DNA from: a virus
Virus record (IMG/VR): IMGVR_UViG_3300036981_000255
Location: 1-64,000 of that record
DNA: 64,000 bases
Strand: one strand, 5' to 3'
This document shows positions 1-41,979 of this stretch, piece after piece. The first letter of the stretch is position 1. Each line of letters opens with the position of its first letter. Position numbers and translations under genes: made by a program. The notes beneath the pieces are model-generated. The model worked only from the letters and a program-made list of their open reading frames with translations. It ran no database searches and had not been told where the DNA came from.

Positions 1-54
1 TTTAAGTCTTCTTGGAAAGGAAAACTAATTCCTAAATATTTATCGTCTGTCATG

Positions 55-657
55 TTAAATTATTTCAGTTATAGCCGTATTGTCAAAAACAACATAGGCA
101 TTTTTGTTTCCAAGTCCAATATCGTCCAAATCTTCAATTTCTGATGTTGAATATTTTAACCCAATATAGCCCATTTTCTGTAATACTAAATTCATAGCAG
201 TACAAACATTGGCATAACTGTTGAAATCATTTGTATTTAGCTTATATTTCTTTAGTAAATCTTGAAAATCTTTTGTGGAGTCTAACGCCCAACTGATTCC
301 AATATAATCTTCGTTTGAAATATCTGCCAACTCATCTTCCTCGTAGTCTGTTATTTGTTTTAGATATTTTCGTCCAAGATTTGTTTTGAAAACTACATCT
401 AATTGAGTTAAAAACTGTGTCAATTCGCTTGAAGTGAAATTTCTTGTCGTGTCAAATATACTCCCAGTAATATCGTATTGTTTGATTTTATCACCGTAAA
501 ACTTGGCTACGCTCAAATCATCTGTTAGATATAATCCTTTGCCAAATAAATCAACATTGCCAGTTTCGTTTTTACCGACTCCACGAATAAGTTTCAAACC
601 TTCGTTTAAAGATAGATTTTCTACGATTAGATTGTTGATGTATTTTTGTAATGTCAT
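55..657 (-). CDS. Putative virion-associated protein with an ART-like (G-x-G-x-Y-x-T) domain
   Basis: 200-aa ORF with RG...LFGKGLYLTDDLSVAKFYG and C-terminal YVVFD, resembling ART-PolyVal-type domains; N-terminal ...LNEG leader. Confidence 0.45.
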   Translation of the reverse strand: MTLQKYINNLIVENLSLNEGLKLIRGVGKNETGNVDLFGKGLYLTDDLSVAKFYGDKIKQYDITGSIFDTTRNFTSSELTQFLTQLDVVFKTNLGRKYLKQITDYEEDELADISNEDYIGISWALDSTKDFQDLLKKYKLNTNDFNSYANVCTAMNLVLQKMGYIGLKYSTSEIEDLDDIGLGNKNAYVVFDNTAITEII

Positions 658-662
658 TTAAA

Positions 663-899
663 TTAACTTTTTATCTTATATTTTAATTTATTTTTTATTA
701 ACTTGCCTAATTCAATTTCTGAAAGATGTGGGTCAATATCAAATATTTTCGATAAAAGTTTAGATGTATTATGTAAGCCGTGTATTTCGTTATCTATCAA
801 TTTTAAATTATTGAAGATAGTATGTTTAAATACATCTAACGATGTTTCTCGTAATCTAGGGATTTTCTCACTTTCAATTTCATCGTGATTCTGTGTCAC
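663..899 (-). CDS. Hypothetical protein, start uncertain
   Basis: ORF track; the frame stays open to about 950 without ATG; TATTTATA motif at 952-959 upstream. Confidence 0.45.
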   Translation of the reverse strand: MTQNHDEIESEKIPRLRETSLDVFKHTIFNNLKLIDNEIHGLHNTSKLLSKIFDIDPHLSEIELGKLIKNKLKYKIKS

Positions 900-971
900 A
901 TTTTTTATTTCATCATTGCTTGATAACCAATTTGCATATTCTATCTTTTTCTATAAATATCCGTAAATCAA

Positions 972-1029
972 TAAAACAAAAAAAAAATCAAAAGACTTAC
1001 AACTTATGTCTTTTGATTTTTTTGTTTTC
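972..1029. terminator. Inverted repeat, probable intrinsic terminator
   Basis: AAAACAAAAAAAAAATCAAAAGAC ... GTCTTTTGATTTTTTTGTTTT. Confidence 0.65.
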
Positions 1030-1104
1030 GTCCCAATTATTGCAATTATTTGGGATAAGTTTTGTTTGTAACAAAAAGCGTCATAATTTGTTACAAAAAA
1101 AAAG

Positions 1105-1225
1105 TTACAAACTAGATTCATGTTGAGCCATTTGACGTTCAAAGTCATTTCTTTCGACAATCGTATCAAAATAGTCTAACGGAAATCCTTCGACATTACT
1201 AATGCAATAGGATGTGTAAACGTAG
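1105..1225 (-). pseudogene. 3' half of a 73-aa gene split by TnpB element 1
   Basis: Minus strand reads (D)YVYTSYCISNVEGFPLDYFDTIVERNDFERQMAQHESSL*; joins in frame to 2662-2762 when the element is removed; hairpin at about 1064-1097 follows the stop. Confidence 0.8.
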
Positions 1226-1256
1226 TCTTACTAACGTCAATCATTAATAATACAAT

Positions 1257-1282
1257 AACATTGAAAATCACATAAGAGTTCC
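1257..1282 (-). promoter_or_regulatory. GGAACT-N17-GTT ECF-like promoter motif, facing out of element 1
   Basis: Same motif and spacing at 5121-5146, 12672-12697, 57188-57213 and 61578-61603. Confidence 0.65.
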
Positions 1283-1305
1283 ATATAAAAAACTTTAATC
1301 TCGAC

Positions 1306-1313
1306 TATTTATA
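1306..1313 (+). promoter_or_regulatory. TATTTATA putative late promoter upstream of tnpB1
   Basis: Same octamer lies on the sense strand upstream of many virion genes. Confidence 0.6.
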
Positions 1314-1342
1314 GTTACATTACAATAAAACGAAAATCACAA

Positions 1343-2593
1343 TTGATAAGAATTTCACGTCATAGTATCAGTAACACGGCAAACCGAAATAAACTCAATA
1401 TTTTGGAACAGATGTGTGTTGACTATAAACACGATGTTCAATTATGTGTAAATAAACTTGTTAGTGGTGAATTACCATTAGCAAATTTACATTTACCAGA
1501 ATTTGTATTTGGTGGTATTTTAAAACATAGTCATTATGTGCGTGATATATATTCTAAAGCCAGTCAAATAGTTCGTGGAGAAATAACTGTTGCTGAAAAT
1601 CGCAGATTTGAATGTTATCAAGAAATCTACAAAGAGTTAATAGAAGCAGACAGACACCCTGCGTTCACAAATAAACGTTATAGTGAACTCAATCTCAAAC
1701 ACATTTTCAAAAGTAGGTTCTTCACAATTCCAGTTATCAAAAACATCACTATTGATTTAGCAAAAGATTTGGTTGACATTCAAGAAGGAAAACACTTTGA
1801 CAATTTTGTTAGATTGAAACTCCCTTATTTTAATGAAAGGGGAACTCTGTCAAAAAAAATCAAAATCCCAGTAAAGAACTATCAACACGCCAACAAGTTT
1901 ATCATAAAAGGATACATACGAAAAACGTCTATTCAAATCAAAAAAGTTGGCGATAAAATGTTTGTCAATTTTCTTTGGCAAAAAGATGAACCAATTGGCA
2001 ACCCTAAATTCAAAATTAAAAATAAGTCTAAACACAAAGTTAAACTCAATCCAGCCAACTATTCCAACCACATCGGCAATTCAATGGGCATCGACTTAGG
2101 CTATAAAAAACTAATTGTAACGTCAAAAGGTCAAGTCTTAGGAACTGACATGATAGACCTTTACAAAGAGATAGCCGATTGTACACGCAACACTAAAAAA
2201 TACAAACGTCTCATAAAAGAACGCAACAACAAAATGAATTATTACGTCAATCAAATTGATTTTGAAGGCATATCAGTTCTCAAAATAGAAGATTTGAAAG
2301 ACGTTAAAAAAGATACTAAAGGAAAATTTTCAAAAAACTTCAATGCAAAACTAGCAAGTTGGGTTTACGGTAAAATAATAAATAAGATTACGATGATATG
2401 TGAGGACAAAGGTATTTTGTTGGAGAAGGTTTCTCCTGCCTATACATCACAAACATGTTCATCTTGTAAGTCGGTACATAAAGAAAGTCGCAAAGGCGAA
2501 AAGTATGAGTGTATTGATTGTGGATTAAAGATTGATGCAGATTATAACGCAGCAATCAATATCAGCAATAGAGGGAGCTTGCAGTCCCCTTAA
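1343..2593 (+). CDS. tnpB: TnpB / Cas12f-like RNA-guided endonuclease (copy 1)
   Basis: RuvC-I GIDLG, RuvC-II IEDL, YTSQTCSSC...CIDC zinc ribbon, RuvC-III DADYNAAINI; catalytic D-E-D intact; TTG start. Confidence 0.93.
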   Translation: MIRISRHSISNTANRNKLNILEQMCVDYKHDVQLCVNKLVSGELPLANLHLPEFVFGGILKHSHYVRDIYSKASQIVRGEITVAENRRFECYQEIYKELIEADRHPAFTNKRYSELNLKHIFKSRFFTIPVIKNITIDLAKDLVDIQEGKHFDNFVRLKLPYFNERGTLSKKIKIPVKNYQHANKFIIKGYIRKTSIQIKKVGDKMFVNFLWQKDEPIGNPKFKIKNKSKHKVKLNPANYSNHIGNSMGIDLGYKKLIVTSKGQVLGTDMIDLYKEIADCTRNTKKYKRLIKERNNKMNYYVNQIDFEGISVLKIEDLKDVKKDTKGKFSKNFNAKLASWVYGKIINKITMICEDKGILLEKVSPAYTSQTCSSCKSVHKESRKGEKYECIDCGLKIDADYNAAINISNRGSLQSP

Positions 2594-2683
2594 CTTTATA
2601 AACTGATTTTGTGTGAGGACATTATACCATTTGGTTGATGTTTTTATATGGGATTGGTAACTCCGCATGGTCTTCGTCACAAA
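2571..2683 (+). ncRNA. Putative omegaRNA of tnpB1 (scaffold to 2663, guide from 2664 CGCATGGTCTTCGTCACAAA)
   Basis: Conserved with 40953-41046; 21-bp stem 2602-2622/2638-2658 with compensatory changes between copies; similarity ends abruptly after GGTAACTC; 5' end uncertain. Confidence 0.75.
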
Positions 2684-2762
2684 CATCACAATTGCATGTG
2701 CCACTGTTGCGATATATTGGTTTACCGATTCTGTCCAAGAACCATTCTTTTGATTTTTGCAT
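2662..2762 (-). pseudogene. 5' half of the gene split by element 1 (CxCxxC motif)
   Basis: MQKSKEWFLDRIGKPIYRNSGTCNCDVCDEDHA; start overlaps the upstream stop (TAATG at 2760-2764); now reads on into the element to a stop at 2622. Confidence 0.8.
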
Positions 2763-2986
2763 TATATGGATTGTTTATAGCGGTCAACAACTTCTTCAAA
2801 AGCAAATTTTACATTGTAGCCACATTTTATCATGTCGTAAAACACGTCCAACTTTTTTAAGTTTGTAAAATTCCAATGCCATAATGTAAACATTTGCCAT
2901 TTATTCAATGGATTGTGATTTTCAATGGCTTTTTGAAAAATCTGTTGCCTTTTTTGTTTTTCTGTTAATTTAATTGAGTTGTTCAT
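2762..2986 (-). CDS. Hypothetical protein
   Basis: 74-aa ORF in a tightly packed minus-strand operon. Confidence 0.7.
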   Translation of the reverse strand: MNNSIKLTEKQKRQQIFQKAIENHNPLNKWQMFTLWHWNFTNLKKLDVFYDMIKCGYNVKFAFEEVVDRYKQSI

Positions 2987-2992
2987 AATTGT

Positions 2993-3298
2993 TTATTTAT
3001 ATTTTTCTAACAAATTATTTACAATTTCTTTTACTTTCTTGCATACATAAATGTCAGTTGCTGATAAATGAACAAATGCGTTTGAACCTAATTCATCAAG
3101 CAATTGAACCAAAGCAACTGCATATAGTTCAAGGTCTGTTGATGTATGCTCGGCAGCAACTTCACTTCTCGACAAGTTACAAAATGATTTAACATTTGTT
3201 CGTAAATAATCATGATGATAAGTGAATGGTACTCGACCTTTAGAATGTGGAAGCCTATCTATAACTTCTAAAATTTGTTGACTTGCAATATGTTCCAT
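2993..3298 (-). CDS. Hypothetical protein
   Basis: 101-aa ORF, ATG start, operon packing. Confidence 0.75.
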   Translation of the reverse strand: MEHIASQQILEVIDRLPHSKGRVPFTYHHDYLRTNVKSFCNLSRSEVAAEHTSTDLELYAVALVQLLDELGSNAFVHLSATDIYVCKKVKEIVNNLLEKYK

Positions 3299-3311
3299 TT
3301 TTTTTATGTTT

Positions 3312-3521
3312 TTAACAATTAGCTACAATAGTAAAGTTTTCTGATACAAAAGTTTGACATTCCAAATGATTTTTACTGTAAAATACCATTTGCTCTCCAT
3401 CCCATTTGAACGGCTCTGCATAAATTCCTGCAAAACCATTGTTATTCAAATGCCTTATATCTTTTATCAAATGACTTATTGTGTAAAGTCTTTGGTCTTT
3501 GTTGTTGCGAAATATGTTCAT
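3312..3521 (-). CDS. Hypothetical protein (likely start MNIFR)
   Basis: ORF track; internal ATG avoids overlap with the upstream gene. Confidence 0.65.
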   Translation of the reverse strand: MNIFRNNKDQRLYTISHLIKDIRHLNNNGFAGIYAEPFKWDGEQMVFYSKNHLECQTFVSENFTIVANC

Positions 3522-3522
3522 G

Positions 3523-3720
3523 TTAATCGTTAAGGTTGACCAGTAAACTATACAATTCTTCACTTATTGGTATCCATTCTCGTTTTGAAACTTCACAATA
3601 AACTTTTGCAAAATATTCACCATCTTTTAGTTTGACATGAAGTGAACCATAACAATTACCGAGACCTGCTATTTTAGTTTTCATTTTTATATAATTAAAA
3701 GTCAATAATTTATTTTCCAA
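3523..3720 (-). CDS. Hypothetical protein
   Basis: 65-aa ORF, operon packing. Confidence 0.65.
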   Translation of the reverse strand: MENKLLTFNYIKMKTKIAGLGNCYGSLHVKLKDGEYFAKVYCEVSKREWIPISEELYSLLVNLND

Positions 3721-4226
3721 CCTCTGTTGTCCACATAATAGGCATCTGCATAAAAACGTTGTACTATTGCAAGCATATTGAACCGATTTTGACCATAAGT
3801 TTTCACAAGAAATCTCGTTTTTCCGTTGGCTTGACTGTAAATCAATTGATATCCAAGCGTTGAATCTTGTGATAATTCTTTAACAAAAGATTTTGCATAA
3901 AAATCTGTGGCTTGTCCGTCTGCCTTAGACAAATATTGTATCAACAAAGTATCGGGCAATTTCGTTTCTGTGAAATAGTCTTTTGATTGACCAACCTGTG
4001 CCGTTTGGCTGAAAGTCGTTTGGCTTGATAACAATAAAATTGTTGCCAATAGAAGTGTTTTTTTCATGTTTTTGTCATCTTTATTAAAATATTTAAGATT
4101 AAGTTCAAAATAAATTAATGTTAATAAAACATAAATTGCTTCATCATCCACAAAATATTTTAATGTTGCACACATCAGTACAACTATTACAAGTGGGATA
4201 AATCGTTTGATTAGATAATTTATCAT
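3702..4226 (-). CDS. Membrane or secreted hypothetical protein
   Basis: N-terminal hydrophobic segments plus an internal signal-peptide-like MKKTLLLATILLLSSQTTFS|Q. Confidence 0.65.
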   Translation of the reverse strand: MINYLIKRFIPLVIVVLMCATLKYFVDDEAIYVLLTLIYFELNLKYFNKDDKNMKKTLLLATILLLSSQTTFSQTAQVGQSKDYFTETKLPDTLLIQYLSKADGQATDFYAKSFVKELSQDSTLGYQLIYSQANGKTRFLVKTYGQNRFNMLAIVQRFYADAYYVDNRGWKINY

Positions 4227-4248
4227 AGTTTTTTTTGTGATTTGTTAG

Positions 4249-5079
4249 TTAATTTGTAAAATAATAGCCATTATCTTCAACGTCAATTTGTTTGTTAATT
4301 GGTTGGCATCTGCGAAGCCTGTAAACTTCTGCCATCATTTCTTCTTCTGTGCAAAAATATTTTGTCCAACTATCATTGTCACTTCCAGATAATCTGATAT
4401 AAAATGGACAATGTTTTTCATCAACCTGTTCAGACTTATCTCCTTTCAAAAGATTTTTAATTGTATCTAATGAATTTTTTAAACCTAATGATTTGACGTG
4501 TGCCAATTTTGTCTTTTTATCCATCAAATACAAATTAAAATCAACCTTCACGTCACGTGGAATATGATGATTCCAAAGATTTAAAAAAGAATCCAAAGAT
4601 GTTAATTCTTGACTTCTGTTTTTGCCGAAAGTCAAATGACAACCTTCTTTGTCGTTTTGAACGTAGTTTCCATAAAATGATGTGTCTTCATCGACTTCAA
4701 TAAATTCCCCATTCTTTTCATTTTTTATTTTAACTGCCTTGATAATATCAGCAGAAATCCACTTATTTGCCTTGATTTCCAATTCTTGTAAAAATGTGGA
4801 ATTTGGAAAATGTTTGTCGAAAAATTTGTTGACTATTCCAAAATTGAAACCTTCAGAATATTTGTCAACGTCTGACAAATTGTCAATTGCAATAGTGAAA
4901 GTCGTTTGAAATAGTTTCTTTTTGTTAAGAAAATCTCCATAAAATACAATCACTGGCAATGCCATGTAAAGTTTTGCTTGACTCGTATTGTAATAAAAAT
5001 GAGCCAATTGACCAAATAATTTAACTTCATTGGAAAATCTAAAAAAAACCTTTTGTGGAAATATTGATGGCTCTGACAT
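4249..5079 (-). CDS. Hypothetical protein (likely start MSEPS)
   Basis: Long ORF downstream of the GGAACT-N17-GTT motif. Confidence 0.75.
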   Translation of the reverse strand: MSEPSIFPQKVFFRFSNEVKLFGQLAHFYYNTSQAKLYMALPVIVFYGDFLNKKKLFQTTFTIAIDNLSDVDKYSEGFNFGIVNKFFDKHFPNSTFLQELEIKANKWISADIIKAVKIKNEKNGEFIEVDEDTSFYGNYVQNDKEGCHLTFGKNRSQELTSLDSFLNLWNHHIPRDVKVDFNLYLMDKKTKLAHVKSLGLKNSLDTIKNLLKGDKSEQVDEKHCPFYIRLSGSDNDSWTKYFCTEEEMMAEVYRLRRCQPINKQIDVEDNGYYFTN

Positions 5080-5120
5080 ATTTATGACATTTAAAGTTAT
5101 AAAAAGATTACAAAACAAAC

Positions 5121-5146
5121 AACAGAAGATTTTTAAATTTAGTTCC
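5121..5146 (-). promoter_or_regulatory. GGAACT-N17-GTT promoter motif
   Basis: Intergenic, exact spacing match to four other sites. Confidence 0.65.
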
Positions 5147-5160
5147 TTGTATTATAAAAA

Positions 5161-5415
5161 TCATTTGCTATCTTCAACAACATAAGACTTATAGTCAAAA
5201 TCTTTTGACAAATGACCCCTATCTTTAAAAAATTGAATTTCTGAAAGCCAACAAATTCCACCTCTTTCTTGTCGCCTTTCCATTGTTTGATTGTTCTCGC
5301 CAAATATGGCTACATAAGCAGCCCAAAGGATTTTTGCGCCATCTTCTGATATTGTTGCATATCCGTTGCAACTGCCTTCGTGTTTTGTATCGAGTAGGAT
5401 TGTGTATGTTTTCAT
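5161..5415 (-). CDS. Hypothetical protein
   Basis: 84-aa ORF. Confidence 0.7.
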   Translation of the reverse strand: MKTYTILLDTKHEGSCNGYATISEDGAKILWAAYVAIFGENNQTMERRQERGGICWLSEIQFFKDRGHLSKDFDYKSYVVEDSK

Positions 5416-5663
5416 ATTTTTTTTATAGTTTCAATAAAATCTTGTGCTATTTTAAGACCATAACTATATGGTGTACAAGCAATATCTTCGGCTTGTTCAA
5501 GTGAAAGTCCAACAGATATTTCTCTCATGTTAAAATAAATGTATAAATAAATCCCATGACTTTTTTCCATATCCTTATAGTATTTTACAACTATATCTTC
5601 TGAAACTTGGTTCAAAATGTCTATTGCTTTTAGATAAATGTCTTTTGGTTGTTGCATAATCAT
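5412..5663 (-). CDS. Hypothetical protein
   Basis: 83-aa ORF, ATGA overlap with the next gene. Confidence 0.7.
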   Translation of the reverse strand: MIMQQPKDIYLKAIDILNQVSEDIVVKYYKDMEKSHGIYLYIYFNMREISVGLSLEQAEDIACTPYSYGLKIAQDFIETIKKI

Positions 5664-5666
5664 GGT

Positions 5667-5981
5667 TTAATATTCCGAAAAAACTTCTGGTTTTAATAAT
5701 TCAAGCTCTTTATAAACAGATTCAAATTTTTCTGTTATATAAGGTTTTATTGGCATCTGTTTTGCGATATATGCCATACAAGCGTAAATCCCAGTCCAAC
5801 CATACTTTTGAAAGATTGGTAAAACCCAAACCAAATCCCTTTCATCGAGTAGAACCATGTCAGCGCAAGCATAGTCAAAAAAGTCATTGGCATTCAATGC
5901 AATGCCAAATGACCCTTTGATTAATTTTTTTAAATCTTCTTCCATTTGTTTATGTGCCATAAGATATTTGTAAAAAGCCAA
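5667..5981 (-). CDS. Hypothetical protein
   Basis: 104-aa ORF. Confidence 0.7.
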   Translation of the reverse strand: MAFYKYLMAHKQMEEDLKKLIKGSFGIALNANDFFDYACADMVLLDERDLVWVLPIFQKYGWTGIYACMAYIAKQMPIKPYITEKFESVYKELELLKPEVFSEY

Positions 5982-6198
5982 TGTTTATACAATTGTGATA
6001 ACCTTCGTAGAAGTTATCTTCATTCTCATGAATCCAATTGAATTTCCATTGTTTACGAATTGCAATCGTTAGATAACATAATTTCCATCGGAAAATCCTT
6101 CCTGCTATAAAATGATTGAAACCGCCATATTTATAGCCATTGGCATTGAAAGTGAAGATTCCCCACTTGAAGAATATTTTTTTTAGATAGGTTTTCAT
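5950..6198 (-). CDS. Hypothetical protein
   Basis: 82-aa ORF. Confidence 0.6.
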   Translation of the reverse strand: MKTYLKKIFFKWGIFTFNANGYKYGGFNHFIAGRIFRWKLCYLTIAIRKQWKFNWIHENEDNFYEGYHNCINIGFLQISYGT

Positions 6199-6211: not shown

Positions 6212-9200
6212 TTAAGAAGAACAGCCGAAGCATTCAAATGGAGAATCCTTGGGTTTTTGTGGTAAATCAGTTGATTCTGTTACAGCTAACTTGTGATTAT
6301 TTTCTCGAATGTCTTTTGTTCGTGTGTAATACACACCAGTCTTCAAACCATTCTTCCAAGCAAACATCAATGCGCTTGAAATTTTACTGTATTTTGCGTC
6401 TGCATGATACACATTCAACGACTGTGATTGGTCAACATATTTATTGCGGATTGCTGATAATTCAAGCAACGTTTTCTGCGGAATCTCCCAAACATCTTTG
6501 TATCTGAAACGAATATCTTCTGGAATTTGGAAAATCTTTTGAATGCTGCCAGCATTTTTGATAAGTTCGTTTTTCATATTCTCATTCCAAAGACCCAATT
6601 CATCTAACTCGTTGATTAAATATTTGTTGATGATTACAAATTCCCCTTGACCTACTTTTCTTGTGAATAGATTTGAAGTTACAGGTTCAAACGACTCGAA
6701 AACACCCAAAAGAATTGCAGAAGAAGCCGTTGGCATTAAACCTACAAATAAGGAATTTAGAACAGCGATTGGTTTGCCATTTTCGCAAGGTGACCATCCA
6801 TCAATGTAGGTTAAACCTTGCTCATACGGACTACCATACCATGCAGGGTAAACTCTGCCTTGTTCCAACGACATTTTGTGGCTCTCCAAAAGAGCTGCTT
6901 TATAAATCGTTTGAAATATATCGTGATTCCATTGTTTTGCTTCTTCAGATTCAAATGATATTTTCTTTTTGGCAAAGAAATCCGCAAGTCCAGCGACTCC
7001 AATGGCTAAGGCTCTTTGGTCAAGTCCTGCGTTTTTTGACCAGTCATCTGACCATTTGTTTTTGTCAATGACAGCGTTCAACGCTCGAACCATAACGCTT
7101 GCGCTATGAGCGATGGTCTCCAAATTGTCATGTTCTGCGAGATTGATAGAACCGAGAGTGCATTGGGCTGTGTAATGTGGTTTGGATACTTGATATATTT
7201 CATTACAATTCCCTGTTAAAATTCCATTGAACATGCCTTTATGTTTTTTGGGTTCATTAAAACAATATGTATCGCTTAAAATTGGTTCTTTTTCAATATT
7301 TTGAATTTTTATAAATGTGTAAGCTTCTCTATTTGGTTGTTTAATGGTGTATTTGAGTCTATGACATTGCAAACCTAAATTATGTAATTTGTATAAAGAA
7401 TTGCCATTTATTAAAATTCTATATACTGTTTGGCAATCAAATAGTATGTTTTTTTCTTGATTCACGTTGTTAGATGGTAACAAATATTGACCAGCTTCTC
7501 TAGTTAATGTAACTTTTGAATACACACCCAATGTTTGCAGCATTAATTGTAAATCACTTAGAAATGGAATATTTACAGAAGCAATTTGTAAGCTTTGTGA
7601 ACCACAATTGTTTGTAACTGTTCCATCTGAATCTAATAAACCTGCCAACCAATCTAAACGGCTTTTAATAGAGTATTCTGAATTTGGAATAAAAAATTTA
7701 TCTTTCAAAACACGTGTATGACAATATTCTCTATCTTGTTTTTCTTGAGTTGACCATTCACCAATCAATGGCATTGTAAACAATGATTTCAATTCACGTT
7801 TTTGCCCATATAAATAAATTCTTTGACCACTATCCGTTAAACAACCATCGCCAGTGTAGAAACCATTTTCATACGCATATTCCAATTCTTTTTCTCCGTT
7901 GATTATTGGCAACTCATGTTTAATCAATTTATCACCAATTTGTAATTCGTTGGCTCTTTTTTCAATTAATTCGTATTTATTTTTTTTACTTTTTTGACCC
8001 TTATAACCAGTTTGCACATAAAACTTATGATATTCAGTACAAGTCAATTGGTGTCCAGAATCAGTTGTAATGTTTAACATCTGTTGATTTTCACCAGTCT
8101 TTTGGACAACTGTTTTTGAAAATTCTTCACCATTCCACACATTAACTTCTTGATTTTCTAACGTTTGAATTTCAATATATCCTTTATCTGTTAATATTTT
8201 AGTATTTGGCGCAACACACAAATTAGACTGCTTCACAACACCTATATTACGTTGCATGTTATTCTTATTTGCATTGTCTTTAAACATCACATAAGGCTTT
8301 CCGCTTTCAACTTGAGATTTGATAATAAAATCCCAAAGTTTTTTCGGTTCAATCGGTTGACCTAAACCTAAATCTACTGCTTTTTGATATTCTGCTTCAA
8401 ATTCTTTACCCCACAAATCGTGTAAAGGCTTGATTCCTGCCATTTCTAAATCATTCGGGCAGAACAGATGCCAAAGTTCATTAGATTGCAATTTTTCCAT
8501 GAATAAATCATTTATAACGACTGCTGTGAACAAATCTCTTGTTCTCATTTGTTCGTCACCTGTTGGCAAAGTCAGCTCAAGGAAATCAACAATGTCTTTA
8601 TGCCAAAGCGACAAATATAATGCACAACTTCCTGCTCTGCTACCTTGTTTGTAAAAACGCATTTTTGCTTGAACCATGTCAGCCAAACGAACTACGCCAC
8701 CTGCTTTTCCGTTGAAACTTTTCACATAAGATTGTTTGCTTCTGATTGGGTCAATCAATAAACCAATTCCAGAACCTTCTTTTGAAGCGTAAGCAATTTT
8801 TGTTAAAGTTTCTTCAATATCTTCAATCGTGTCACCTGCAAGCATCGTCAAATTGCAAGAAATTCCTGCGCCACGATTTTCAATACCCATATTTGTATAA
8901 ATGGGTGTGGCAAAGTTCATGCGTTTAGTCATGAGTTCCTCTAACATCAATTGACATTCATCTTCATCTGCTGATAAATAAGAAGCCACCCGATGATACA
9001 TACAAGATGGCAATTCTACTGGCACATTGTTAATTCTTTTGGAGTATTTTTCCAAAAACGTAGTGGCAGCAAAAAAATCGTAAGACATGTCAACTTCTGC
9101 CAAAGGTTTATCAATTAATTTCGATTGACGACTCATTAAAATTCTTCCGCCTAACAATGAATAATCTGGGTGATTTAAACATTTGTCAGCAGATTCAAAA

Positions 9201-9373
9201 GCTATAATTTCGTCAATTTTCGTAGATGACATTTTGTCTGTTATCAACGGTATCACATCTTGGAATAATTGTGCAGCATCAACCTTCAATCCTTTGGCTT
9301 GTGCTTTAATTCTATTGTAAATTTTGTTGGGCATGAACTCTTGGACAGAGCCATCATTTTTTGTTATTTTCAT
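6212..9373 (-). CDS. nrdA: Ribonucleotide reductase class Ia alpha subunit with intein
   Basis: N-terminal ATP cone, FATP, SNLC.EI split by an intein, MPTASS, GLKTGVYY, C-terminal CxxC. Confidence 0.95.
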   Translation of the reverse strand: MKITKNDGSVQEFMPNKIYNRIKAQAKGLKVDAAQLFQDVIPLITDKMSSTKIDEIIAFESADKCLNHPDYSLLGGRILMSRQSKLIDKPLAEVDMSYDFFAATTFLEKYSKRINNVPVELPSCMYHRVASYLSADEDECQLMLEELMTKRMNFATPIYTNMGIENRGAGISCNLTMLAGDTIEDIEETLTKIAYASKEGSGIGLLIDPIRSKQSYVKSFNGKAGGVVRLADMVQAKMRFYKQGSRAGSCALYLSLWHKDIVDFLELTLPTGDEQMRTRDLFTAVVINDLFMEKLQSNELWHLFCPNDLEMAGIKPLHDLWGKEFEAEYQKAVDLGLGQPIEPKKLWDFIIKSQVESGKPYVMFKDNANKNNMQRNIGVVKQSNLCVAPNTKILTDKGYIEIQTLENQEVNVWNGEEFSKTVVQKTGENQQMLNITTDSGHQLTCTEYHKFYVQTGYKGQKSKKNKYELIEKRANELQIGDKLIKHELPIINGEKELEYAYENGFYTGDGCLTDSGQRIYLYGQKRELKSLFTMPLIGEWSTQEKQDREYCHTRVLKDKFFIPNSEYSIKSRLDWLAGLLDSDGTVTNNCGSQSLQIASVNIPFLSDLQLMLQTLGVYSKVTLTREAGQYLLPSNNVNQEKNILFDCQTVYRILINGNSLYKLHNLGLQCHRLKYTIKQPNREAYTFIKIQNIEKEPILSDTYCFNEPKKHKGMFNGILTGNCNEIYQVSKPHYTAQCTLGSINLAEHDNLETIAHSASVMVRALNAVIDKNKWSDDWSKNAGLDQRALAIGVAGLADFFAKKKISFESEEAKQWNHDIFQTIYKAALLESHKMSLEQGRVYPAWYGSPYEQGLTYIDGWSPCENGKPIAVLNSLFVGLMPTASSAILLGVFESFEPVTSNLFTRKVGQGEFVIINKYLINELDELGLWNENMKNELIKNAGSIQKIFQIPEDIRFRYKDVWEIPQKTLLELSAIRNKYVDQSQSLNVYHADAKYSKISSALMFAWKNGLKTGVYYTRTKDIRENNHKLAVTESTDLPQKPKDSPFECFGCSS
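7208..8218 (-). mobile_element. Intein with LAGLIDADG endonuclease in NrdA (337 aa)
   Basis: QSNL|CVAPNT...CTEYHKF...GFYTGDG...WLAGLLDSDG...GILTGN|CNEI; +1 residue is the catalytic Cys. Confidence 0.93.
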
Positions 9374-37050: not shown

Positions 37051-37260
37051 TTAATCTTGTGGTTGTAAACTATGCTTTGTAACTTTTTCAACGTTTAATC
37101 TAAAACCGATTCTTCCGTCAACAATGATTCCAAGCATAGTGTCATCATTTTCTGGATTCATCATCATTGGTGTTGCTTTGAATCTATCTGTACTGTTGAT
37201 AAAATTTTGCAACATTGTTGTAAACTCTGTTTGAAGTTTGTTAAATTCTGTAATATTCAT
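37051..37260 (-). CDS. 69-aa hypothetical protein, duplicate A
   Basis: Near-identical to 37515-37724. Confidence 0.8.
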   Translation of the reverse strand: MNITEFNKLQTEFTTMLQNFINSTDRFKATPMMMNPENDDTMLGIIVDGRIGFRLNVEKVTKHSLQPQD

Positions 37261-37514: not shown

Positions 37515-37724
37515 TTAATTTTGTGGTTGTAAACTATGTTTTGTAACTTTTTCAACGTTCAATCTAAAGCCAATTCTTCCGTCAACGATGATTCCTAACA
37601 TTGTATCATTAGTTTCTGGATTCATCATCATTGGTGTGGCTTTAAATCTATCTGTACTATTGATAAATTCTTGCAACATTGTTGTGAACTCGTTTTGGAG
37701 TTGGTTAAATTCTGTAACATTCAT
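37515..37724 (-). CDS. 69-aa hypothetical protein, duplicate B
   Basis: Near-identical to 37051-37260. Confidence 0.8.
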   Translation of the reverse strand: MNVTEFNQLQNEFTTMLQEFINSTDRFKATPMMMNPETNDTMLGIIVDGRIGFRLNVEKVTKHSLQPQN

Positions 37725-37771: not shown

Positions 37772-37850
37772 TGGAATTAAAACTCATAAATTCGTTTATG
37801 ACAAACCTCGCAAACAGTTTGTGATAAACTCGTAACCTCGTTATGATAAA
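37772..37850 (-). repeat. Three tandem 22-24 nt palindromic units (TCATAAA-CGAA-TTTATGA type)
   Basis: Inverted copy inside element 2 at 39612-39670. Confidence 0.75.
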
Positions 37851-39425: not shown

Positions 39426-39493
39426 ACAAAAAAAAGACATTCAAAGGATATTCAACCGAAAAATCCGTTGAAATTCTTTGAATGTCTTTTGAC
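39426..39493 (-). terminator. Strong hairpin plus U-run, terminator of the former tail-tube allele
   Basis: AAAAGACATTCAAAG ... CTTTGAATGTCTTTT with 8 U on the minus strand, about 45 nt after the orphan CTT TAT TAA. Confidence 0.75.
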
Positions 39494-39534
39494 TTGGGGA
39501 TGTCTTTAGACTAGATAAAAAAACTGATGAAAGG

Positions 39535-39543: not shown

Positions 39544-39574
39544 TATTGTCATCGTTAATCAGTAACCATACAAT

Positions 39575-39600
39575 ATCGTTGAAAATCATATAAAAGTTCC
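39575..39600 (-). promoter_or_regulatory. GGAACT-N17-GAT variant promoter motif, facing out of element 2
   Basis: Homologous to 1257-1282. Confidence 0.5.
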
Positions 39601-39611
39601 ATAAAAAAAAC

Positions 39612-39670
39612 TTTATCGCAACCGAGTTTACGAAGGTTTATCATAAACGAATTTATGAGGTTTAATTCCA
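39612..39670 (+). repeat. Two palindromic units, a 49-nt insertion relative to element 1
   Basis: ATCGCAACCGAGTTTACGAAGGTTT + ATCATAAACGAATTTATGAGGTTT. Confidence 0.75.
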
Positions 39671-39672
39671 AC

Positions 39673-39680
39673 TATTTATA
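39673..39680 (+). promoter_or_regulatory. TATTTATA putative late promoter upstream of tnpB2
   Basis: Conserved with 1306-1313. Confidence 0.6.
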
Positions 39681-39712
39681 GTTATATTATAACAAAAACA
39701 AAACACTATCAA

Positions 39713-40975
39713 TTGCTAAGAACATCCCGACATAGTATCAGTAACACAGCAAATCAAGGCAAACTCAATGTTTTGGGGCAATTCGTTAATGATTACAAAC
39801 ATGATGTTCAATTGTTTGTTAATAAGATTGTCAAAGGTGAATTTCCGTTACAAACACTATATTCTCCAAAGGGTGTTGAAGGTGCAATCTTAAAACACAG
39901 TAAATACAAACGTGACATTTACACAAAAGCAAGTCAAATAGTTAGAGGAGAAATAGCAGCAGCCGAGGAACGCAGATACCAAGCCTACAAGAAATTGTAC
40001 AAGAAACTTATTAAGCTAAATATTCATACTGCATTCACTAATAAACGATATAGCGAACTGAACCTCAAACACATTTTCAAAACCGATTTTTTCACTATTC
40101 CAGAAATCAAAAATATCACTATTGATTTGGCAAAAGATTTGGCTGACATTCAAGACGGCAAACACTTTGACAATTTTGTAAGAATCAAACTTCCATATTT
40201 CAATGAAAAAGGCACACGAGCCTTACAAATCAAGTTACCAGTCAAAAATTACAAACATTCAAACAATTTTATCACTAAAGGTTACACAAGAAAAACGTCA
40301 ATCCAACTAAAGAAAGTCAATAACAAATTCTTCATAAACTTCTTGTGGGAAAAAAACGAAATCAAAAAATCAAAACTATCTTTCAAACCCAAAGTAAAAG
40401 CCAAATCAAAAACAGACGAACGCCCTAAACAAAGCGACATAATTCTATCCAAAACAGATAACTCAATGGGCATTGACTTAGGCTACAAAAAACTAATTGT
40501 AACGTCTAAAGGTCAAATCTTAGGAACTGATATGATAAACATTTACAAGAAATTGGTGGCTTGTAAAAGTGGAACAGCAAAATATAAACGTTTAAAAAGA
40601 GAACGAGATAACAAAATAAACTTCTATGTCAATCAAATTGACTTTGATGGTGTTGAAGTTTTGAAAATCGAAGACCTCAAAGACGTAAAAAAAGATTCAA
40701 AAGGTAAAAAATCAAAAAAGATAAATTCACTTCTCTCAAAATGGATTTATCCAAAAATTATAAGTAAAATAACGATGACATGTGAGGACAAAGGTATTTT
40801 GTTGGTAAAGGTTTTACCAGCATATACATCACAAACATGTTCATCTTGTGGTGAAATACATAGAAAGAGCCGTAAAGGTGAACTTTACAAATGTGTTTCG
40901 TGTGGTTTTGAATTGGATGCAGACTTAAATGCAGCAATCAATATCAATAACAGAGGGAGCTTGCAGTCCCCTTAA
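39713..40975 (+). CDS. tnpB: TnpB / Cas12f-like RNA-guided endonuclease (copy 2)
   Basis: GIDLG, IEDL, TCSSC..CVSC, DADLNAAINI; full-length homolog of 1343-2593; TTG start. Confidence 0.93.
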   Translation: MLRTSRHSISNTANQGKLNVLGQFVNDYKHDVQLFVNKIVKGEFPLQTLYSPKGVEGAILKHSKYKRDIYTKASQIVRGEIAAAEERRYQAYKKLYKKLIKLNIHTAFTNKRYSELNLKHIFKTDFFTIPEIKNITIDLAKDLADIQDGKHFDNFVRIKLPYFNEKGTRALQIKLPVKNYKHSNNFITKGYTRKTSIQLKKVNNKFFINFLWEKNEIKKSKLSFKPKVKAKSKTDERPKQSDIILSKTDNSMGIDLGYKKLIVTSKGQILGTDMINIYKKLVACKSGTAKYKRLKRERDNKINFYVNQIDFDGVEVLKIEDLKDVKKDSKGKKSKKINSLLSKWIYPKIISKITMTCEDKGILLVKVLPAYTSQTCSSCGEIHRKSRKGELYKCVSCGFELDADLNAAININNRGSLQSP

Positions 40976-41066
40976 CCAAAAAACTGGATTTGTGTGAAAA
41001 TGTGAAATCTTTAGGATTCTATGTTTTTATATGGATTTGGTAACTCTTAGGCAGTATTGCAGTTGG
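40953..41066 (+). ncRNA. Putative omegaRNA of tnpB2 (scaffold to 41046, guide from 41047 TTAGGCAGTATTGCAGTTGG)
   Basis: 21-bp stem 40983-41003/41021-41041; conserved with 2571-2663. Confidence 0.75.
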
Positions 41067-41116
41067 ATTGAAAATGAAATTTCTCTAACTTTAACATCAG
41101 TGTAGTCAAAAGTTCC
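41045..41116 (-). pseudogene. 72-nt remnant of a divergent tail-tube allele
   Basis: GTFDYTDVKVREISFSIQLQYCLR versus GEFSYGDAKVREISFTIQPQRCLR at 41497-41568; 17/24 aa, 49/72 nt, no gaps. Confidence 0.88.
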
Positions 41117-41120
41117 CATC

Positions 41121-41490
41121 TACCTTAAAAAAAGAAGAAGGGCGTTTCATTGTAATTTATACAGAACAAGACTTATCAAGCAAATTATTAAAACAAAATA
41201 TTGTCAAATTGTCTGGAACAGACATAACAAACAAAACACGTCATAAAACAAGTGAGAATCGTTCCAAAGAAACAAGGTTACATCGTTTTTGAAGTGGTCT
41301 ATGAAGTCAAAGAAATTCCAAAAAAGAAAGACAATAAACGTTACCTTTCAATAGACTTAGGCATCAACAATCTATCAACGTTATCAAAGCACAAATCATC
41401 AACGGTAAACCACTAAAATCAATAAACCAAATTTCCAATAAACAAGTATCAAAACTGAAATCAATTATCACAACGATAAATAAAAAACTA
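41121..41490 (+). pseudogene. tnpB: Frameshifted fragment of a different TnpB family
   Basis: Across frames: EGRFIVIYTEQ...KLSGT / IKQVRIVPK..YIVFEVVYE...YLSIDLGINNL / IINGKPLKSINQ..NK. Confidence 0.8.
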
Positions 41491-41979
41491 GTAAAGTCTT
41501 AGGCAACGTTGTGGTTGTATAGTAAATGAAATTTCACGGACTTTTGCATCACCATAACTAAATTCACCAAAATCTAATTCACCTGTTACAATGGCATTTT
41601 CAATCAACCATTTAGATACTGCTACACCAGTTGGGTCTAATAGTTCAAGTTCAAGATTTTTTGCGCATCCTATATTGTATCCCATACGACCTGTGGCAGA
41701 TTCAGCGTGAAGACGTACCCACTCCATCAATGCTTCACCTTGAGAGGGTGCAACAAAATCTCTAACTTTTATTGCCATTTCTTTCCACTCATACGAGCCA
41801 TTCACGTATGTTTTAGTATTTAAAAAAGCAATATCAATTTTTTGCAAGGACATTTTCGGTGAACCGCAAGATATTAATGACCATGTTTGAATACCAACAT
41901 CTGATGGAAAACGTAAAATCCAACGATTTGTTAGCATAATTTCATATTGCAAAGGACTTTTTAATAGTAAATCCGCCAT
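41488..41979 (-). CDS. Tail tube protein (gp19-like)
   Basis: NRWILRFP...WKEMAIKVRD...LMEWVR...LELLDPTGVAVSKW...QPQRC; near the sheath gene. Confidence 0.88.
   Translation of the reverse strand: MADLLLKSPLQYEIMLTNRWILRFPSDVGIQTWSLISCGSPKMSLQKIDIAFLNTKTYVNGSYEWKEMAIKVRDFVAPSQGEALMEWVRLHAESATGRMGYNIGCAKNLELELLDPTGVAVSKWLIENAIVTGELDFGEFSYGDAKVREISFTIQPQRCLRLY

Follow-up and report, generated by a model that had tools for sequence, protein, structure and literature searches.

A phage-borne element of the IS607 lineage without a transposase gene, inserted in the most conserved codons of a small phage gene

The first 64 kb of the IMG/VR virus record IMGVR_UViG_3300036981_000255 (64,000 nucleotides, hereafter the window) belong to a phage contig of 98.6 kb with 32% G+C and a CheckV completeness of about 36%, and contain phage genes, including one for a tail-tube protein. 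Two related insertion elements were found in it. Element 1 (positions 1226-2661, 1436 nucleotides) is composed of a left end, an intact tnpB gene and a predicted 3' RNA scaffold, has no tnpA gene, and interrupts a small, cysteine-rich phage gene in antisense orientation. We consider it quite probable that element 1 is a transposase-less member of an IS607 branch living in phages, in which left end and tnpB are followed by a scaffold running into a guide, that it was originally inserted by a serine recombinase, and that it has persisted by RNA-guided means.

Excision of element 1 joins the minus-strand segments 2762-2662 and 1225-1105 into an open reading frame (ORF) of 73 amino acids with its stop codon, and the translation is exactly the one quoted in a preliminary description of this DNA, in which the gene was said to be split precisely in frame. 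On the plus strand the sequence is cgtag-tc-ttactaacg at 1221-1236 and ggtaac-tc-cgcatgg at 2656-2670, with TC present at both junctions (1226-1227 and 2662-2663). The boundaries can be placed in three registers, an ambiguity of 2 nucleotides, and all three leave one and the same empty site, cgtAGTCcgcatgg. The insertion had been described as precise and free of a target-site duplication, and no such duplication was found at element 1, as the exact join restores the ORF and the junctions are alike over 2 nucleotides only.

The joined frame is not a chance ORF, because an uninterrupted homolog spans the join. This protein, P0002, has 83 amino acids, was the sole full-length relative returned by a word-indexed search of 5.8 billion proteins, and is 66% identical to the rebuilt protein over 96% of the query (E = 5.7e-26). 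Across the join it reads DENHADYVW (in a fuller reading DENHADYVWTGY), thus joining HA to DY as predicted, whereas on the phage's own contig it matched only the two halves, at 2667-2762 and 1129-1254. Single-protein scans of viral contigs gave no match for the 73-amino-acid protein or for TnpB, a four-sequence profile (metagenome and viral contigs) detected distant loci only, and a megablast comparison of window positions 1-6000 with GenBank phages gave no match.

A HMMER scan with P0002 yielded 266 representatives of a small-protein family. The motif HAxY is nearly invariant in it (H in 126, A in 142 and Y in 126 of 150 aligned rows), so that element 1, which lies within this motif (HA/xY), occupies the best-conserved codons of the split gene. 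Since the element is antisense to the gene, splicing could not rescue it. The N-terminal half as it stands reads into the right end of the element and forms a 46-amino-acid ORF (2622-2762). Many family members align with P0002 only as far as HAxY, and whether they are also interrupted there was considered; all of them run on to xYL, and only their C-termini vary. The split gene and the tail-tube remnant described below account for the two genes that had seemed to be missing from the window.

In the tnpB product of element 1, the RuvC residues D251, E316 and D400 and the zinc-finger cysteine columns are invariant in an alignment of 33 sequences. The 3' 93 nucleotides of the element, which hold the 3' part of the predicted scaffold, fold with a minimum free energy of -41.1 kcal/mol (z = -3.9), lower than all 200 shuffled sequences, and the equivalent part of element 2 gave z = -3.0. 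The long terminal hairpin is rich in G-U pairs and the scaffold ends in GGUAAC-UC. Among 20 relatives, pairing in the small hairpin is kept by compensatory changes at 6 of its 7 pairs, and G(T/C)AACT is invariant. The left end does not fold better than its shuffles (z = +1.2). No terminal inverted repeats were found in either element, the best match between the ends being an internal one of 11 nucleotides that is unconvincing in AT-rich DNA, and an Rfam search (E <= 1) detected no group I intron, RAGATH-18 or known omegaRNA family in them. A scan for sigma-70 promoters around element 1 gave nothing above shuffled sequences. On the whole 98.6-kb contig no Resolvase domain scored above the cut-off (the best PF00239 match, of 12.3 bits, lies inside an 863-amino-acid frame), and no Y1_Tnp domain (PF01797) was detected.

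Relatives of the TnpB were identified by a profile scan of IMG/VR at about 80 loci, many of them on contigs of 50-430 kb and often in 2-3 copies per contig. Close relatives are rare in cellular genomes; a Desulfovibrio phage and an uncultured phage of 462 kb are among the GenBank matches, and JGI contigs carry one TnpB resembling that of element 1 (P0005, 83%) and one resembling that of element 2 (P0007, about 87%). At locus L008 a Resolvase-domain ORF ends 30 nucleotides before tnpB. Besides this locus, a serine transposase gene (TnpA_S) abuts tnpB in 22 of the approximately 80 viral loci, as detected by tblastn with two TnpA queries, and these include the nearest relatives of element 1, L093 (43%), L096 and L100. 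In a tree of 59 non-identical TnpBs, elements 1 and 2 form a pair inside a subclade of 96% support that also holds L093 and L096, and the 17 TnpA_S-linked rows are scattered throughout. Among 149 ORFs flanking the relatives, 15 contain a Resolvase domain, and Y1_Tnp is not among the 25 Pfam families listed for them. Judged from these sequences, the lineage is IS607 and not IS200/IS605, in agreement with the preliminary description. As TnpA is present in relatives but absent from elements 1 and 2 and from the contig, the two elements are transposase-less derivatives and not autonomous.

Several relatives carry, in the place of tnpA, an ORF of about 49-54 amino acids that ends at the start of tnpB (L094, 2352-2498; L097, 2352-2498; L003, 1478-1639). 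Its match to the ribbon-helix-helix regulator RepB-RCR_reg is borderline, with 21.4 bits for a cut-off of 21. Neither element 1 nor element 2 has this small ORF of the transposase-less relatives.

The right end in most relatives, including the TnpA_S-bearing L093, L096, L136, L144 and L160, reads (A/G)G(T/C)AAC-T-N, where A predominates at N, some relatives have G, and elements 1 and 2 have C. Both right ends in the window had been reported to finish in GGTAACTC, and this sequence was indeed seen at 2656-2663 and 41039-41046; the whole contig has only these two such right ends. The left boundaries were set by comparing diverged copies (Table 1). Those of L003, L004, L098, L111 and L114 could not be placed, their left-end motif being too divergent, and for L097 no homologous empty site was found in four related phage records. 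GG does not occur at the right-end junctions of the clade, and elements 1 and 2 have TC/TC and TA/TC, respectively, at their left and right junctions.

These junctions were compared with the sites documented for IS607 elements. A GG core and (G)GG targets have been described for IS607 (PMC6188088), a TGGG transposon-adjacent motif (TAM) for CboTnpB with a TnpA_S that is strict for GG (10.1101/2023.11.20.567912), a GGG TAM for ISXfa1, whose CGG right end spares the intact element (10.1101/2023.08.09.552727), and the TAMs AGGAG and GAGGG for RAGATH-18-guided TnpBs (PMC11061315), and a 2026 review states that the family integrates strictly at GG (PMC13565253). None of these GG or G-rich sites fits the junctions seen here, so the earlier proposal of a core other than GG is borne out. 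Two T residues are constant, one lying 2 nucleotides ahead of the left end and the other following AAC in the right end, and in both cases the second base varies. Left and right dinucleotides are unequal in 3 of the 5 definable copies among elements 1 and 2 and family A, namely element 2 (TA/TC), L094 (TA/TG) and L097 (TG/TA). With unequal cores, the IS607 transposase CboTnpA_S is reported to leave the dinucleotide of the donor at the left end and that of the target at the right end (10.1101/2023.11.20.567912). The pattern fits a 2-nucleotide exchange site T-N that tolerates mismatch; read in this way, TA at element 2 would have been brought by the element and TC would derive from the tail-tube target.

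The preliminary description had gone further and proposed a core of exactly TC with a TAM 5'-AGTC, the AGTA at the left junction of element 2 being put down to a later substitution, here C to A, or a boundary shift. This strict version is possible but, in our judgement, the less probable account. It agrees with the TC at both junctions of element 1 and the AG before it, with the TC at the right junction of element 2 and the AAGTC of the resident tail-tube paralog at the homologous place, and with the AG before the T-A junction of L091. However, it derives from two independent sites only, and the conserved right end itself finishes in TC, so that of the AGTC said to be shared by both empty sites only AG is independent, with a chance of about 1 in 16. 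Elements 1 and 2 share AG with L091, but in other subfamilies its place is taken by GGTGT or AA. Across the clade the second base varies (A more often than G, and G more often than C), and left and right ends mismatch in L094, L097 and element 2, which is better explained by a fixed T with a tolerated second base. A TAM of AGTC with a TC core is therefore a reasonable guess and not a result. The left junction of element 2 is indeed AGTA (TA at 39544-39545), but as TA is usual in the clade and IS607 TnpA is reported to leave non-matching dinucleotides, these give a better account of it than a substitution.

A further difference between the two ends concerns position -3, which is C at every right end (AAC-TN) and G, G, T, T, T, A, A, A, T and G, never C, in the ten defined left flanks. 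This may provide a one-base distinction between self and non-self, resembling the difference between the GGG TAM and the CGG right end of ISXfa1, although with ten sites in a genome of about 16% C it is only suggestive.

Element 2 is inserted two codons before the stop codon of a decayed tail-tube paralog. Its removal (39546-41046) restores QYCLRLY and a stop codon followed by the downstream spacer, a C-terminus that is also found in the intact tail-tube gene (41488-41979). That gene contains an uninterrupted 14-mer, taaAGTCttaggca, at 41492-41505, but this site matches the flank and presumed guide of element 2 for 7 nucleotides only and then diverges; at the homologous place it has the AAGTC mentioned above. 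The TnpB of element 2 (420 amino acids) is 68% identical to that of element 1, and the whole elements are 73.6% identical in nucleotide sequence. A comparison of the two tnpB genes gave a dS of 1.44 and a ratio of non-synonymous to synonymous substitutions (dN/dS) of 0.15, and the left ends are 79% identical despite this dS when a 49-nucleotide insert of element 2 is set aside, which argues that both the gene and the ends are constrained.

To the right of element 2 follow the tail-tube remnant, a frameshifted internal fragment of an unrelated TnpB of the OrfB_IS605 type (41130-41493, truncated at both ends, with an ORF at 41252-41416) and the intact tail-tube gene. For the tail-tube duplicate it is of note that the phage has tandem paralogs elsewhere: two minus-strand genes for 69-amino-acid paralogs (37051-37260 and 37515-37724, 88% identical in DNA) lie 464 nucleotides apart with a 79-amino-acid gene between them. 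Of the insert in the left end of element 2 (39600-39648), 37 nucleotides recur with 95% complementarity at 37772-37808, in an intergenic spacer 1.8 kb away, and both places hold the palindrome TCATAAACGAATTTATGA; the 98.6-kb contig has only these two copies. A near-perfect palindrome at 39426-39496, which on the minus strand closely follows the restored tail-tube stop codon, is probably a bidirectional terminator; it was matched to mir-90 in Rfam on both strands, a spurious hit.

Duplicated flanks were also seen in relatives. The right flank, which is the presumed guide region, is repeated upstream of tnpB in L159 (2101-2170 and 3716-3785) and in L136 (2099-2118 and 3319-3338). The L159 duplicate extends over more than 65 nucleotides, has diverged in the way two alleles would, and is preceded by a right-end-like sequence, ATAACTAT; both cases recall the duplicated tail-tube end at element 2. 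In L091, from the 462-kb uncultured phage (LR756500.1), an exact 13-nucleotide direct repeat, TACATCGCATCAA, flanks the element at 2451-2463 and 3689-3701. The left copy ends an upstream 468-amino-acid ORF as EYIASI-stop, and the right copy would have given YIASK-stop; the truncated gene thus seems to receive a substitute end from the element itself.

The split gene beside element 1 bears a further change, which the preliminary description had missed. Between the motifs CxxC and HAxY, the window allele lacks 11 residues of consensus VYxNGLxIxDE (CDVCDE-DHA, compared with CDVCDEVYNNGLVISDENHA in P0002). This deletion of 33 nucleotides is unique to the window allele, the segment being kept in 148 of the 148 other members that cover both sides, and it is in frame and bounded by repeated DE codons. 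Its junction lies 9-15 nucleotides into the right flank, within the 20-nucleotide presumed guide, and this places the deletion around the cut positions reported for an IS607 TnpB, 16 nucleotides (non-target strand) and 22 nucleotides (target strand) from the TAM (PMC11061315), both of them positions within the lost segment or at its border. The deletion may reflect either decay or slippage after insertion in a dead gene, or the scar of a TnpB cut repaired through microhomology.

Taken together, these data suggest the following course of events. TnpA, acting in trans or since lost, would have inserted the element by a serine-recombinase exchange at T-N, and the scaffold of the omegaRNA would run at its 3' end into the flanking DNA, which would serve as guide. 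TnpB with this flank-derived guide would then cut alleles in which the left-flank motif (approximately D-T-N, here AG-TC) abuts the target, and recombination with an element-bearing genome would copy the element into the cut allele, or the cut allele would be lost during co-infection. The element's own right junction, AAC-TC, would be spared by its C at -3, compared with G, T or A in the defined left flanks. Such persistence has been termed non-restorative homing (PMC13565253).

Several points weigh against this course of events. The omegaRNA, the length of the guide, the TAM and the cleavage are all predictions from sequence. Elements 1 and 2 are old copies, as seen from their 73.6% identity, and give no sign of having moved recently in this genome. 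With an undeleted allele the present guide would match over 9-15 nucleotides only, which may be too little for cleavage, so that element 1 may no longer home into typical alleles. The contig represents about 36% of the genome, and a TnpA could lie elsewhere. Finally, the register of the crossover is ambiguous (TC, a frame shifted by 1-2 nucleotides, or T-N only), since in most copies T-N is followed by another T.

A bolder extension would see in the clade a large, undescribed phage-resident IS607 branch with a T-N (mostly TA) site and an AT-rich TAM, spreading among large phages during co-infection in the manner of an RNA-guided gene drive, the deletion being a cleavage scar and the duplicated, diverged target flanks at element 2, L159, L136 and L091 the footprints of homing and escape. 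In this full form we regard it as doubtful.

It is rather unlikely that the tnpB genes are domesticated, immobile nucleases, which would be used as a weapon against co-infecting relatives with an intact allele (marker exclusion) or as regulators. Strong purifying selection (dN/dS 0.15) in genes without TnpA agrees with such a role, as do the antisense orientation of both guides to phage genes, the abundance of the clade, often multi-copy, in large phage contigs, and the departure of the resident tail-tube allele beside element 2 from the guide after 7 nucleotides. However, element 1 disrupts a host gene, the ends show the same conservation as in relatives with a TnpA, and homing and exclusion are not mutually exclusive. 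An IS200/IS605-type element, inserted as single-stranded DNA 3' of AGTC by a Y1 (HUH) TnpA and cleaved after ACTC at its right end, is very improbable: IS605 elements also lack target-site duplications and lie beside a motif of 4-5 nucleotides that doubles as TAM, the right end does form a strong hairpin and several database homologs are labelled 'IS605 OrfB', but this is a generic annotation of TnpB, no Y1 TnpA was found on the contig or among the 25 families listed for the flanking ORFs of relatives, the left end lacks a hairpin, and 22 relatives have a serine recombinase in the tnpA position.

The transposase-less IS607-type element favoured here shares several features with known systems. 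Like IS607 of H. pylori, ISXfa1 and the CboIStron of C. botulinum, it combines TnpB with a 3' guide-RNA scaffold (predicted in element 1), without terminal inverted repeats or target-site duplication, and has a short dinucleotide at both junctions, with a right end that differs from the TAM at one position and would spare the intact element. A serine transposase with MerR-type helix-turn-helix and Resolvase domains abuts tnpB in those systems as well as in relatives of element 1. In contrast to them, the clade has T-N (TC/TA) after GTAAC and an AT-rich left flank where those systems have a GG core and a TAM of TGGG or GGG, and element 1 lacks both a TnpA in cis and a group I intron, and resides in a large phage and not in a bacterial chromosome. 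Unlike an IStron, it gave no intron in the Rfam scan, has a left end of 115 nucleotides only and is antisense to its gene. IS1341-type elements, usually discussed for IS200/IS605 and for bacterial or archaeal chromosomes, likewise consist of tnpB and ends only and are presumed to be maintained by TnpA in trans or by RNA-guided homing; element 1 differs from them in belonging to an IS607 branch that lives in phages. The IS607 TnpBs guided by RAGATH-18 (ISFba1 and relatives; PMC11061315) are similarly compact, with about 390-415 amino acids and a guide RNA at the right end, but in element 1 Rfam detected no RAGATH-18, the predicted scaffold overlaps the 3' end of tnpB and the flanks are unlike AGGAG or GAGGG. 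The homing endonucleases of T-even phages (Seg, Mob and I-TevI; PMC13565253) are also selfish nuclease genes in or beside a conserved phage gene. In co-infected cells they are expected to cleave the allele without the insertion and to be copied into it by recombinational repair, the flanks being co-converted, and the same would be expected here, except that element 1 would find its target by a guide RNA and a short motif instead of by protein, and that no intron or intein restores the gene.

Elsewhere in the window, a minus-strand ORF of 1053 amino acids resembling ribonucleotide reductase (6212-9373) has an insertion in its middle that, by eye in the translation, resembles an intein with a homing-endonuclease-type domain. 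The features discussed are collected in Table 1.

Table 1. Positions in the window of elements 1 and 2, of the interrupted genes and of associated features, with the left junctions of relatives
Feature	Coordinates	Strand	Basis or remarks
Left-junction dinucleotide TC of element 1, candidate crossover core, AG before it	1226..1227	+	Sequence; repeated at 2662-2663
Left end of element 1, 115 nucleotides, non-coding, unstructured	1228..1342	+	79% identical to left end of element 2 (91/115)
tnpB of element 1, 416 amino acids, intact	1343..2593	+	Pfam Cas12f1-like_TNB, 1e-19
omegaRNA-like scaffold, 3' part (predicted)	2571..2663	+	Hairpins 2571-2591 (small) and 2602-2658 (long terminal); tail AAC-UC
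Right-junction dinucleotide TC of element 1	2662..2663	+	Sequence
Presumed guide, first 20 nucleotides of right flank, antisense to split gene	2664..2683	+	Predicted from TnpB/omegaRNA architecture (10.1101/2023.11.20.567912)
Split gene, C-terminal half (last base of codon 34 to stop)	1105..1225	-	Join translation; P0002 residues 36-77; family alignment
Split gene, N-terminal half (codons 1-33 plus 2 nucleotides)	2662..2762	-	ORF translations; P0003
Deletion site in split gene	2667..2678	-	Junction between 2672/2673 and 2678/2679, ambiguous from the DE/DE repeat
Element 2	39544..41046	+	TA junction 39544-39545, left end 39546-39712, tnpB 39713-40975, right end GGTAAC, TC 41045-41046
Remnant (about 27 codons) of diverged tail-tube paralog, target of element 2 and presumed guide source	41047..41127	-	Aligns with C-terminus of 41488-41979
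Intact tail-tube gene	41488..41979	-	PHROG 4542, tail tube, 1.5e-13
Left junction, L094			GGTGT-TA-TTAACGT
Left junction, L097			AGTAT-TG-TTAACGT
Left junction, L096 (with TnpA_S)			GGTGT-TG-TGTACGT
Left junction, family B (four sites)			xxAA-TA-TT
Left junction, L091			GAGAG-TA

TnpB in phages and tnpB elements lacking TnpA are already known. Compared with the literature searched, what looks new is that IS607 has a populous branch carried by phages, in which the ends are GTAAC-T-N and the flanks AT-rich. Such a clade would give IS607 a second type of site, GTAAC-T-N, fitting AT-rich phage genomes, and would supply compact TnpBs of 390-420 amino acids with AT-rich TAMs. The clade includes elements inserted in conserved genes, a deletion that may be a scar of cleavage, and nearby alleles that depart from the guide sequence. 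It offers natural material for the question of whether tnpB genes without TnpA are maintained in phages through RNA-guided homing or exclusion.

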